Source: Alphaproteobacteria bacterium (GTDB taxonomy: Bacteria > Pseudomonadota > Alphaproteobacteria > RF32 > CAG-239). From it: 64,000 nt of DNA. Numbering within the stretch: the stretch's first letter is position 1; the number at the start of each line of letters is the position of its first letter. Positions 23,804 to 62,858 of the stretch are shown piece by piece. The position numbers were made by a program, and so were the translations under genes. The notes below the pieces were generated by a model, which saw only the letters and a list, made by a program, of their open reading frames with translations, was not told where the DNA came from and did no database searches. The stretch spans positions 41,375 through 105,374 of the forward strand of contig JAZLEQ010000042.1 of NCBI GenBank assembly GCA_045615365.1. The letters run 5' to 3'.

Positions 23804-24037
23804 ATGACAATACTTGAAAAGATGTTGGAAAACTGTGAAAAAGCAGGATACACAACAACCAAAAATGTTCAAAAAATAGCTAATGCAAAACAAATGATGT
23901 TTGGTGATGCGGAATGGCACAGATGCCCTTGCGACGGTAAAAATCCGGATCGTTATTGTATTTCGGATTTGTGTCGTTCGGACATAGAACGCGACGGAGA
24001 ATGTCACTGTCATTGTTATTGTAAAAAAGTAGGATAA
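23804..24037 (+). CDS. small Cys-rich protein, ferredoxin-thioredoxin-reductase catalytic-subunit-like (inferred)
   Basis: 77 aa with HRCPCDGKNPDRYCISDLCRSDIERDGECHCHCYC, which resembles the CPC...C...CHC cluster of FTR catalytic chains. A strong terminator follows. Confidence 0.4.
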   Translation: MTILEKMLENCEKAGYTTTKNVQKIANAKQMMFGDAEWHRCPCDGKNPDRYCISDLCRSDIERDGECHCHCYCKKVG

Positions 24038-59827: not shown

Positions 59828-60439
59828 TTATTTTTTCTTTTTAAAATTTCTGGAAGATGATTTTTTGTTTTTAAACTTAAAAACATCGTCATCAATGTCT
59901 TCATCTTTTTTTGTTTCATATAAAGAAACGCTAACCTCAACACTTTGCGGGTCAACAATTTTCCATTGTTTTAATTCCATAGGGCTGTTTGAGAACACCA
60001 AAGTAATCGGCCCCAAATTACCTTTTTCGGCATAATCTAAAGTTATAGATGTTGAGCCGCTGTCTTGATAAAAATCTGATACTTTAATTTTTTTACCGTC
60101 TATTTTCACATCGTTTGAAAGAATCATTGAAGCCGGAATATCATTATAATCGATATGAGTAACCTGATCCAAATCCGGATCATTATAAATAATATAATTT
60201 CCGTCACCCACAATCAAAACGTTTGTCGGTTCGGCATATTCCATGCGAATTTTGTTTGGTTTTTTTATAAAAAGTTTGCCTTCGGCAGAAGCTCCGTTTG
60301 ACGCCATTTGCACAAAAGTTGCTTCCAGTGATTTGATGTTATTCAGATAATTTTCAATTTTTTGCAAATTTTCAACTGATTGAGCTTTTGCTTCAAAACT
60401 CAAAAACATTCCCAAGGATAGCGCCAAAAATTTTTTCAT
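59828..60439 (-). CDS. lolA: outer-membrane lipoprotein carrier LolA-like protein
   Basis: Signal peptide, then LNNIKSLEATFVQ...GKLFIKKPNKIRMEY. Confidence 0.8.
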   Translation of the reverse strand: MKKFLALSLGMFLSFEAKAQSVENLQKIENYLNNIKSLEATFVQMASNGASAEGKLFIKKPNKIRMEYAEPTNVLIVGDGNYIIYNDPDLDQVTHIDYNDIPASMILSNDVKIDGKKIKVSDFYQDSGSTSITLDYAEKGNLGPITLVFSNSPMELKQWKIVDPQSVEVSVSLYETKKDEDIDDDVFKFKNKKSSSRNFKKKK

Positions 60440-60511
60440 TCCAAACCTCTATTTAAGTAAAACAATGCTTCTAATATAATTATTTTGTTCTATAAGTCCA
60501 CACTAAAAGTG

Positions 60512-60537
60512 CACCCCTGTCAAAAACGACAGGGGTG
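60512..60537. other. strong GC stem-loop (possible terminator of the small ORF)
   Basis: CACCCCTGTC (60512-60521), loop AAAAAC, GACAGGGGTG (60528-60537). Confidence 0.5.
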
Positions 60538-60566
60538 GAATATTTAATATATATTTTTTTGTTTGC

Positions 60567-60731
60567 TTAATAGTCGCCGCATCCGCACCCGCAATCATTG
60601 GACGATGATGAAGGTTTGGACTGTGATGAACTTTTAGATTCGTTTTTTTTTGCAAGCTTAGCGCTTTTTGAAGACGATGAGGCTGAAGCGCTCATTTTCT
60701 TTGGTGAAGGTTCTCTCATATCTTTACACAT
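60567..60731 (-). CDS. unannotated small ORF: Ser/Lys-rich peptide ending in NDCGCGCGDY
   Basis: Hand translation of the minus strand gives MCKDMREPSPKKMSASASSSSKSAKLAKKNESKSSSQSKPSSSSNDCGCGCGDY, then stop. AAGGAG lies 11 nt upstream of ATG 60731, and an in-frame ATG at 60740 would give 57 aa. The ORF is below the 60-aa cut-off of the supplied track. It sits in a 384-bp gap and a GC hairpin follows. Confidence 0.45.
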   Translation of the reverse strand: MCKDMREPSPKKMSASASSSSKSAKLAKKNESKSSSQSKPSSSSNDCGCGCGDY

Positions 60732-60823
60732 AACAAACATACTCCTTATAAAATTTTTAAAAAGCTTATAAAAGCAATAAAGAGATAGTTATTTTGCAAG
60801 AATAAACAACCTAGCCATTAATA

Positions 60824-61744
60824 CTACATATTTCGAGGTTTAAAAACTCCATCTTCAAAACCTTGAATTTGTTTGTTTTCTTCTGACATTTGTAAACGCA
60901 TTAAAGATAATGCCACATATTCTTTTTCTTTTTCAATGCCGATGAAGTGCCTATTAAGTTTTTTTGCAACTACTGCAGTGGTGCCTGAGCCTAAAAACGG
61001 GTCAAATACGACATCGCCCTCATTTGAAGAGGCCAAAATCAATTTTGCAATAAGCTTTTCCGGTTTTTGTGTCGGATGGTTTGTGTTTTCGCTCATCGAC
61101 CAAAAGGGAATGGAAATATCTGTCCAAACATTAGACGGATGAGTTAAACGCATTTTTTGTTTGTCTTTTTCAAACCAATCTTTTGGTGATCCTTTTGTAT
61201 CTCTGTATGGAGCTATAACCGGACGCAAGATTTTAACATTATCCAGATTGAAAGTATATTCCTTACCTTTGGTAAAAAACCAAATATCTTCCAAACAATT
61301 TTTCCAGTTGTTTTTAGCGCCTCTGCCTTTTTCTCTTTCCCATGAAATTCGATTTTGCAATAAAAAATATTTTCCTGCTATATATGGAATTACAACAGAT
61401 GTTTTCCAATCCGAACAAATATAAACAGACGCATTATCTTTTAGAATTCGGCTTGTTTTTTTTAGCCATTTATCCAACCATTTTGCATATTCATCATCTT
61501 TCATCTCCTTAAACACCGACGATCCGAAGTTTTTTGTCAGGTTGTATGGCGGATCAACAATCATCAAGTCCACGCAACTATCAGGAATTTTATCCATTGC
61601 GGTAAGAGCATCTTGCCAAATCACCGTATCAATAATTTCTTCCAAATTTTTTCTTTTTTTCAGTTTGTTTGCCTCAGAAGAAAGTTTTGAAATTTGCCTT
61701 TGGTTTAGAGTAATAGTTTTGTTTCTGTTGTTTTTGGAAGACAA
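60824..61744 (-). CDS. orphan beta-class DNA methyltransferase (N6-adenine or N4-cytosine, DPPY type)
   Basis: Motif IV IVDPPYNL precedes motif I VVFDPFLGSGTTAVVA, and HPTQKPEKL is present. The TTG start directly abuts the HPr stop. No restriction endonuclease gene is adjacent. Confidence 0.85.
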   Translation of the reverse strand: MSSKNNRNKTITLNQRQISKLSSEANKLKKRKNLEEIIDTVIWQDALTAMDKIPDSCVDLMIVDPPYNLTKNFGSSVFKEMKDDEYAKWLDKWLKKTSRILKDNASVYICSDWKTSVVIPYIAGKYFLLQNRISWEREKGRGAKNNWKNCLEDIWFFTKGKEYTFNLDNVKILRPVIAPYRDTKGSPKDWFEKDKQKMRLTHPSNVWTDISIPFWSMSENTNHPTQKPEKLIAKLILASSNEGDVVFDPFLGSGTTAVVAKKLNRHFIGIEKEKEYVALSLMRLQMSEENKQIQGFEDGVFKPRNM

Positions 61745-62420: not shown

Positions 62421-62858
62421 CTAAGACCTCTCTTGTTTTACAACATCTTCGCCGTTAACCCAAATTTTAACCGCTCCGAAACTCTTAAGGAGTTCATCGC
62501 GATTTTTGGCTCTTACCAATTCGTCTGCTCGAGTTTGTTTGCCGGCAAATACAATTTCTTCCACATTTTCTACAGGAACACCATACACTCTTTCCACCAT
62601 TTTACCTTTAAGCTCAACAATCATCACAAATTCCGATTCTGCCAAAGGTTCAACAGTTTCCGGATGAATATTATCAAGTTTAACGGCCAAATGTGCATCT
62701 CTTTTCAAAAGGGCTGTTTTTTTGCCGTCAAATTCCAAAACCGGATTATCCGGCAAGCCTGATCTTGCATCAATAAAAATGGCCAATTCACCATATTTAT
62801 TTTCAATAATCTCAAAAAAATCTTGTTTTTCAATAAGAGTATAATATTGTGTTTCCAT
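62421..62858 (-). CDS. hypothetical protein, first gene of the EIIA-HPr-methyltransferase operon
   Basis: 145-aa ORF abutting EIIA with no gap. No recognisable motif. Confidence 0.55.
   Translation of the reverse strand: METQYYTLIEKQDFFEIIENKYGELAIFIDARSGLPDNPVLEFDGKKTALLKRDAHLAVKLDNIHPETVEPLAESEFVMIVELKGKMVERVYGVPVENVEEIVFAGKQTRADELVRAKNRDELLKSFGAVKIWVNGEDVVKQERS

Follow-up and report, generated by a model that had tools for sequence, protein, structure and literature searches.

We analyzed a 64,000-nt stretch of contig JAZLEQ010000042.1 (positions 41,375–105,374 of the forward strand; hereafter the window, at its full length) from the Alphaproteobacteria bacterium assembly GCA_045615365.1, a 1.6-Mb genome with ~35% GC that is 99.9% complete. 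At its center of interest is the 384-bp gap between a DNA methyltransferase gene and lolA, which holds on its minus strand an open reading frame (ORF) at 60567–60731 that is very likely a real protein-coding gene. Its 54-aa product, MCKDMREPSPKKMSASASSSSKSAKLAKKNESKSSSQSKPSSSSNDCGCGCGDY, is a Ser/Lys-rich peptide ending in Cys-Gly repeats. The lineage is the RF32 / CAG-239 group of GTDB. Since it has no cultured member, all evidence presented here is comparative. The features of the locus, given in the direction of transcription, are as follows.

60824–61744, minus strand: DNA methyltransferase gene (N6/N4 type; PF01555, E = 4e-49)
60440–60823: gap between the methyltransferase gene and lolA (384 bp)
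60782–60813, minus strand: candidate promoter block, TAGGTTGTTT, spacer, TATCTC, recognized by conservation and lying directly past the methyltransferase stop
60764–60775, minus strand: hairpin GCTT-TTAT-AAGC in the 5′ untranslated region (UTR), between the candidate promoter and the Shine-Dalgarno (SD) sequence; weak in this genome, stronger in relatives
60742–60747, minus strand: SD sequence AAGGAG, 10 nt 5′ of the ATG at 60731
60567–60731, minus strand: small protein gene, 54 codons plus a TAA stop (ATG at 60731, stop end at 60567), with, from N- to C-terminus, a MCKDMRE motif, a KMSAS motif, a Ser/Lys-rich body predicted to be disordered, and the C-terminus D-C-G-C-G-C-G-D-Y
60512–60537, minus strand: intrinsic terminator hairpin CACCCCTGTCG-TTTT-TGACAGGGGTG (terminator scan and fold)
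60473–60500, minus strand: promoter-like site 5′ of lolA, TGGACT, 16 nt, TATATT (promoter scan)
59828–60439, minus strand: lolA (PF03548, E = 3e-28)

The 384-bp gap, the minus-strand ORF of 54 codons, the AAGGAG, and the Cys-Gly tail are all present as a preliminary description of this DNA had reported them, and so is the stem-loop past the stop, which starts 29 nt downstream and comprises 11 pairs, 7 of them G-C (fold z = −2.9). Two starts had been offered in that description, and they fared differently: translation of 54 aa from the ATG at 60731 stands, while a 57-aa start at ATG 60740 was rejected, being only 1 nt away from the AAGGAG (vs 10 nt for 60731) and having no counterpart in relatives. 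All homologues begin with M-C or M-S-C, and an AGGAG-type SD sequence lies 6–11 nt before the ATG in all 58 distinct homologous loci (the set behind every count of loci out of 58 below); the spacing and this shared start pattern together indicate that the 54-aa start is the real one. An antisense ORF of 57 aa (60598–60771, plus strand) is not conserved, and was rejected as a gene.

Conservation and transcription signals of the small gene

The order HPr, methyltransferase, small ORF, lolA, and xthA was identical in all 16 genus loci first fetched, in which the neighbor proteins share 65–86% identity with those of the window. More broadly, a homologous ORF of 32–60 aa was found directly 5′ of lolA in 60 of the 70 lolA loci taken from named metagenome-assembled genomes (MAGs). 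A profile search of 283 genomes of the order detected the small gene in 79 genomes from 7 genera, i.e., in its own genus (53 of 56 species) and in six more genera within its family; this search gave no match in the remaining 17 genera of the order.

Within the 58 loci, the frame of the small gene is open in every case, compared to 0–13 for the five other frames, and all length differences among homologues are in frame. Ratios of non-synonymous to synonymous substitution rates (dN/dS) were 0.05–0.39 in clean close pairs and 0.33 when pooled. The two invariant Cys codons alternate between TGC and TGT (44/15 for the first, 45/14 for the second), and the invariant Gly between them uses all four codons (GGT 32, GGC 20, GGA 5, GGG 2). 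Motif residues are thus fixed while their codons vary, which points to a constraint on the amino acids rather than on RNA or DNA. By these measures, purifying selection acts on the small gene within a single family of uncultured alphaproteobacteria of the gut. The preliminary description had named a search for similar peptides, conservation of the reading frame in relatives, and codon substitution as checks; all three came out in favor of its proposal of a real but unannotated small protein gene with a C-terminal Cys-Gly motif, as did the synteny and the codon use.

A non-functional ORF, open by chance or because of low-complexity composition, is hence a highly improbable explanation. The composition is indeed of low complexity, gene callers rarely call the ORF (12–18 members are found in protein databases, none of them named), and some lineages have lost it. 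Yet this would leave unexplained a frame that is open at each of the 58 loci (at most 13 for any other frame), an SD sequence at all loci, dN/dS well below 1, an invariant motif whose synonymous sites vary freely, and insertions and deletions that are in frame every time.

Transcription signals were found on both sides of the gene. A hairpin of −10 kcal/mol or better follows the ORF stop in 53/58 loci, with stems that differ in sequence between lineages, and the retention of the hairpin despite these differences indicates covariation. From its predicted fold and its conservation, the hairpin at 60512–60537 is the end of the small gene's transcript. Farther downstream, an element of the form TGGACT/TTTACT, 16–17 nt, TATATT is kept genus-wide between the terminator and lolA, and the putative promoter at 60473–60500 delimits the transcription unit of the small gene on its downstream side. 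Upstream, the block at 60782–60813 can be read as a −35 element TTGTTT (60809–60804), a 16-nt spacer, and a −10 element TATCTC (60787–60782). The corresponding pattern GGT[TA][GC]T…CTTA(C/A)(T/A)T occurs ~70–95 nt 5′ of the ATG in 30/58 loci, where relatives show TAGGTTGTTT or TAGGTTCTATTGTTTT, ~15 nt, and then CTTACTTC or TCTTAAAT. A consensus promoter scan of the window did not call this block, which we infer to be a weak candidate promoter or regulator site. A 5′-UTR hairpin of −5 kcal/mol or better stands at the equivalent place in 39/58 loci, with unrelated stem sequences, and an Rfam scan of the region returned nothing that reached the gathering score. Overall, we infer that the small gene is a self-contained monocistronic unit with its own SD sequence and terminator, lolA having its own promoter-like site.

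This arrangement bears on two ways in which the ORF might merely serve lolA. The preliminary description had considered that the region could be no more than the 5′ UTR of lolA, which is unlikely with a conserved terminator and a promoter-like site parting the two genes. Alternatively, the ORF could be a regulatory leader peptide, or upstream ORF, whose translation controls read-through of the terminator into lolA-xthA. Such a role would suit an ORF that lies directly 5′ of lolA on the same strand at every locus and that is followed by a terminator hairpin in 53 of the 58 loci. We nonetheless consider it very unlikely: selection on amino acids spans the whole peptide, N-terminal motifs included; the fold shows the terminator only, with no alternative antiterminator pairing; the promoter-like site between terminator and lolA is conserved; in lineages that have lost the ORF, lolA still comes directly after the methyltransferase gene; and no Rfam leader family matched at gathering score. 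A special linkage to lolA was rejected as well, because the methyltransferase gene also lies upstream in most divergent loci, i.e., the linkage reflects plain conserved gene order.

The peptide and its family

The encoded peptides fall into no family of Pfam or NCBIfam, as scans of several members yielded nothing above threshold. A profile search of the PDB returned only a chance match to Prp16, and the single peptide drew no match in a word-based search for homologues. When the family alignment was used instead, that search recovered 18 proteins without a name, each of them a member of the family. Likewise, the family profile was run exhaustively (hmmsearch) against 1.84 billion representative proteins and gave 12 matches, again confined to the family, with no distant relatives. 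As judged from these searches, the small proteins are a lineage-restricted and so far unnamed family.

Counts of members below refer to an alignment of 56 family sequences. Across the family, composition is strongly skewed (28% Ser, 14% Lys, 10% Asn, 6.0% Cys, and only 1% Ile, Leu, Val, Phe, and Trp combined), with net charges between −2 and +7. The peptides are extremely hydrophilic: in none of the 56 members does an 11-residue Kyte-Doolittle window exceed 0.26. Having no hydrophobic segment, they lack both signal peptide and membrane segment, so that the peptide is expected to be cytoplasmic. AlphaFold2 run with the 56-sequence alignment gave no secondary structure (predicted template modeling score, pTM, 0.13; mean predicted local distance difference test score, pLDDT, 60), and the peptide is accordingly predicted to be disordered.

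Against this background, a single element is universally invariant: C-G-C, present in 56/56 members, within G-C-G-C in 51 of them and extended to CGCGC in 5. The last Cys is followed by 2–5 variable residues, the final one being Y in 40 members, K in 7, R in 4, E in 4, and N in 1. Other conserved islands are restricted to the genus level, namely the M(S)C(K/N)DMRD N-terminus, KMSAS, and the terminal Tyr; distant genera are without them and retain the Ser/Lys/Asn-rich spacer plus GCGC, e.g., MATTKSSSSKSSSSASSTKKSGCGCGCGSKKK and MSNKNTSKTASSSENSTNNSNNTSKTGCGCGKNK. Most members have three Cys (45/56), with four in 4 members and two in 7, and in 46/56 one Cys is at residue 2–3. Several members without the N-terminal Cys (loci L023, L080/L081, and L082; L-numbers label related loci) carry their third Cys elsewhere, either as a CGCGC(G) repeat or internally. 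The pattern of conservation suggests that C-G-C is the functional center of the peptide.

The related loci, retrieved through LolA, come from MAGs of uncultured gut Alphaproteobacteria, one of them listed as "Proteobacteria bacterium CAG:495". Their hosts include humans (among them Hadza and Nepali individuals), sheep, roe deer, water deer, rabbit, chicken, and others. No paralogue of the small gene was found in a search of its own genome. In one related MAG (G018), the region spanning xthA, lolA, the small ORF, the methyltransferase gene, and HPr is present twice, on contigs C36 and C38 (L112 and L002), with differing small-ORF sequences. The "second copy" was rejected as a paralogue, being the same syntenic locus on another contig, and two related strains or species are probably mixed in this MAG. 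Another record, L082 (JAISVX010000001.1), is a 391-kb contig titled "MAG: Lactobacillaceae bacterium" that holds an alphaproteobacterial-type locus (EIIA, HPr, methyltransferase, small ORF, lolA); its Lactobacillaceae label is probably wrong. One divergent clade (L080 ~480–620; L081 ~2203–2343) has a second small Ser/Lys-rich, Cys-containing ORF, MSLREKSASCCSRETKSASSQSSKGSCKNTSSGSKSCMK, in tandem behind the gene for the GCGC peptide and with its own AGGAG, possibly a duplicate that has diverged and lacks the CGC motif. Finally, the EIIA(Man)-HPr-methyltransferase string of the window begins with a gene for a 145-aa protein (62421–62858, minus strand) that has no Pfam or NCBIfam match and is kept with the same neighbors in the related loci L112, L033, and L081.

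Candidate functions of the Cys-Gly-Cys motif

Thiol-based metal binding or redox chemistry is probably the most likely function, as predicted from the conserved motif. Between the two, we tentatively favor thiolate metal binding by the CGC thiols as the putative function of the peptide, an assignment that the preliminary description had also listed and that we regard as no more than possible. The Cys-Gly-Cys thiols would then be the working part and the Ser/Lys/Asn-rich body a flexible spacer, and a partner would dock on the short motifs M(S)CKDMRD and KMSAS. Kept reduced in the reducing cytoplasm of a gut anaerobe, the thiols could chelate a thiophilic metal ion or cluster, e.g., Cu(I), Zn(II), Ni(II), or Fe/Fe-S, with two peptides possibly bridged by the metal. 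As a small buffer or chaperone for metal, the peptide would be the genetically encoded equivalent of phytochelatins, with their alternating Cys spacing, and of metallothioneins, with their CxC units.

Precedents for metal binding by CxC units are metallothioneins, the alternating Cys of the phytochelatin type, the HypB N-terminus (CxxCGC), CooC, and CCS. With metallothioneins, phytochelatins, and CxC metal sites the peptide shares alternating Cys (C-x-C-x-C) on a small flexible carrier, and its Cys pattern is of the chelation type throughout the family (C-G-C in every member, CGCGC in 5, three or four Cys in 49/56). We ranked metal binding above redox because the peptide is expected to be cytoplasmic in a gut anaerobe and because its thiols, as a rule three, are flexible in placement. 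A disulfide with E°′ = −0.167 V should stay reduced in the bacterial cytoplasm. This value is the one quoted for the free CGC disulfide (10.64898/2026.01.27.701630). As weak context in favor of metal binding, CopA and CopZ appear to be missing from the genome, as assessed by simple motif scans only. Neither a metallochaperone of the HMA type (GMxCxxC) nor a heavy-metal P-type ATPase of the CPC type was found in these scans, and the single P-type ATPase that they did identify (contig C2:51633–54290 of the source genome) is of the ICSDKTGT type without CPC or CPH, hence not a heavy-metal pump.

Several observations weigh against metal binding. Metallothioneins typically have ≥15% Cys, compared to 6.0% in this family with 2–4 Cys per peptide, and seven members have two Cys only. 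Pfam, NCBIfam, and PDB profile searches revealed no sequence similarity to metallothioneins or CxC metal proteins. No metal-related gene adjoins the small gene. The gene was also cleanly lost at loci L034, L036, L046, and L085 and in 3 of the 56 genus species, and is therefore dispensable in those lineages. Last, the strict Gly between the two Cys fits redox-active CGC sites at least as well, by analogy with the sites discussed next.

A redox-active CGC arm would cycle between a dithiol and a strained disulfide in an 11-membered ring, serving as a thiol-disulfide shuttle, an isomerase-like catalyst, or a sensor of oxidative stress, with a partner protein docking on the N-terminal motifs. There are precedents for this chemistry. 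H-Cys-Gly-Cys-NH2 catalyzes disulfide formation, cleavage, and rearrangement, mimicking protein disulfide isomerase (PDI), and in yeast, genetically encoded CXC peptides can take the place of PDI (10.64898/2026.01.27.701630). Experiments on the DsbB-like MauE showed its required active site to be a CGC in a disordered loop, with mostly Gly or Ala at the X position (10.64898/2026.03.05.709764), and the C-terminal CXC of DUF4266 has been proposed to cycle its redox state (10.1101/2021.01.07.425746). In common with these minimal CXC redox catalysts (the PDI-mimic CGC peptide, CXC-linker peptides, and the MauE loop), the peptide family carries CGC on a flexible, unstructured segment as its sole functional chemistry; Gly or Ala is favored at X in the former, and Gly is 100% invariant there in the latter. 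The genome motif scan also identified a thioredoxin (WCGPC) and a thioredoxin reductase (CATC), and no clear glutaredoxin was seen. However, the precedents all act in oxidizing compartments (periplasm or endoplasmic reticulum) or in vitro, whereas the peptide has no export signal, and a high-potential disulfide would be a poor carrier in the strongly reducing cytoplasm of an anaerobe. On balance, a redox function is conceivable but doubtful.

One candidate reductase for such a cycle was tested, a conserved Cys-rich mini-protein of 77 aa (9 Cys, arranged as CPC…C…C…CHCHCYC) that is encoded on the plus strand behind parB (23804–24037). Pfam gave no match to ferredoxin-thioredoxin reductase (FTR) for this protein, only a weak, sub-threshold one to DGF-1_N. 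It is found in 175 of the 283 genomes and in 19 of the 24 genera of the order, at 67–95% identity. This distribution differs from that of the peptide (79 genomes, 7 genera) and includes the three genus species that lack the peptide, so that the FTR-like protein was rejected as its partner for want of co-occurrence. More speculatively, the peptide could be the natural encoded counterpart of the synthetic CGC catalysts, i.e., an unfolded chain that carries a CGC dithiol on a Ser/Lys spacer, docks onto client or partner proteins through its N-terminal motifs, and performs thiol-disulfide exchange or metal/cluster hand-over in the cytoplasm. We consider this combined proposal unlikely as it stands.

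As its leading suggestion, the preliminary description had offered a precursor of a ribosomally synthesized and post-translationally modified peptide (RiPP). A Ser/Lys-rich leader would then precede a GCGC(G) core, which enzymes encoded elsewhere would convert into thiazoles, thioethers, thioamides, or lanthionines. Size and layout would fit: the N-terminal motif and the Cys/Gly C-terminus are conserved, and the middle varies. Precursors with a Gly-Cys core, such as those of microcin B17-type thiazole/oxazole-modified microcins (TOMMs), SCIFF/ranthipeptides, and methanobactin/MNIO substrates, are likewise small and have a conserved N-terminal and a Cys/Gly-rich C-terminal segment. Gly-Cys is moreover a classic azoline-forming substrate, and one member matches the putative bacteriocin family YxzE, albeit very weakly (E = 0.15). 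Unlike for such precursors, no cognate maturase was found in the genome or lineage, and there are no neighbors for tailoring or export. Neither YcaO nor MNIO/DUF692 was found in the 99.9%-complete genome (control positive for both), and LanC was not found in 41 genomes in a search without a positive control. The genome encodes a single radical S-adenosylmethionine (rSAM)/SPASM protein; it was missing in each of the 24 sister species searched, most of which have the peptide. As the preliminary description had noted, no modifying enzyme is adjacent: the small gene stands alone as a monocistronic unit, and none of 60 loci has a protease, exporter, or immunity gene beside it. Genomes of the lineage are also just 1.2–1.7 Mb in size. 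The RiPP proposal is thus disfavored, and we consider it improbable. The rSAM/SPASM protein itself (370 aa; no named NCBIfam family above cutoff) is encoded with a DUF218 protein at C7:43940–47107 of the source genome, G000 (L091 1–3168), between a truncated and a full copy of one RNase H gene, both of which start MRCDMMKAYCDSSFDEK; this segment looks like a genome-specific insertion that duplicated its target.

Equally improbable in our view is a Cys attachment site, in which the C-terminal Cys or that at position 2 would be acylated, prenylated, or conjugated to a cofactor or protein, tethering the peptide to a membrane or partner. C-terminal Cys motifs serve as lipid-attachment or sorting sites in the MYXO-CTERM class (10.1101/2023.06.07.544157), and the peptide resembles MYXO-CTERM, JDVT-CTERM, and other myxosortase-processed proteins in that a Cys motif, often of two closely spaced Cys, is conserved close to the C-terminus; the Cys at residue 2–3 of 46/56 members would offer a second site. 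The signals of this class are, however, tripartite (Cys motif, transmembrane helix, and Arg cluster) and occur on Sec-exported proteins (10.1101/2023.06.07.544157). The peptide does not show this architecture: there is no signal peptide, hydrophobic segment, transmembrane helix, or Arg cluster, and 2–5 residues lie past the last Cys. Without a signal peptide or membrane segment, the known Cys-based sorting signals are not applicable, which also bears on the lipidation-mimic tail listed in the preliminary description. Nor is the end of the peptide like a CaaX box, since the post-Cys residues vary in both number and identity, and no candidate transferase was identified.

Relation to DUF4266 and significance

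Small proteins are systematically missed in annotation, and this peptide has been missed in almost every MAG of a gut family that is widespread, though uncultured, in humans, ruminants, and other animals. It provides a clean case of strong coding selection on an invariant three-residue chemical motif with no fold. If the CGC tail is a metal or redox device, an unfolded peptide would be nature's minimal carrier of vicinal-thiol chemistry, an idea so far shown mainly with designed peptides, and light would also be shed on the uncharacterized DUF4266 proteins. If its function is mundane, a well-defined new family of small proteins would still be gained, with precise gene boundaries for annotation pipelines.

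The closest known counterpart of the peptide family is DUF4266 (PF14086), small lipoproteins of ApbE / DUF3570 / thioredoxin-like (sometimes DsbD) clusters. DUF4266 proteins are encoded with ApbE, a flavinylated DUF3570 protein, a thioredoxin-like protein, and sometimes DsbD (10.1101/2021.01.07.425746). Both families are small (~50–90 aa) and have a glycine-flanked C-terminal Cys-Gly-Cys as their most conserved element, which reads (S/G)GCGC(G/S/N) in the peptide family and an invariant GGGCGCN in DUF4266. Consistent with this likeness, 27/56 members gave a sub-threshold match to the C-terminal end of the Pfam DUF4266 profile (best E = 6e-5), although the peptide of the window itself did not match. 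Scores of the family remained ≤20 bits, with a best genomic match of 19.4, compared to a gathering cutoff of 27 and to 65–83 for true members, and hhalign of the family against DUF4266 aligned the last 10 columns only, at 50% probability.

Beyond the tail, the two families differ. DUF4266 proteins have a lipoprotein signal peptide with a lipobox, the motifs PWER..LA..M and H(I/V)YFSKE, and an end exactly at …GCGCN, whereas the peptide family has neither signal peptide nor these motifs and adds its 2–5 variable residues past the last Cys. Canonical DUF4266 members for comparison were drawn from 28 of 401 genomes of the phylum; none were found among the same-class genomes listed. Maximum 11-residue hydropathy is ≥1.92 in 12 canonical DUF4266 proteins, vs ≤0.26 in the peptide family. 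DUF3570 lies directly beside canonical DUF4266 in 6/6 control genomes, and is absent from 41/41 genomes of the peptide's lineage. Membership in DUF4266 was therefore rejected, as the family lacks four of its five defining features (score, signal peptide, core motifs, and DUF3570 cluster).

Taken together, these sequence comparisons indicate that the peptide family is probably a cytoplasmic, stand-alone analogue of DUF4266, convergent or at most sharing its motif. Small proteins with a C-terminal CXC tail were already known, if poorly understood, and what is new here is a free-standing cytoplasmic peptide. Should it prove to be a natural counterpart of the synthetic CGC catalysts, the GGGCGCN end of DUF4266 would represent an independent invention of the same minimal device.

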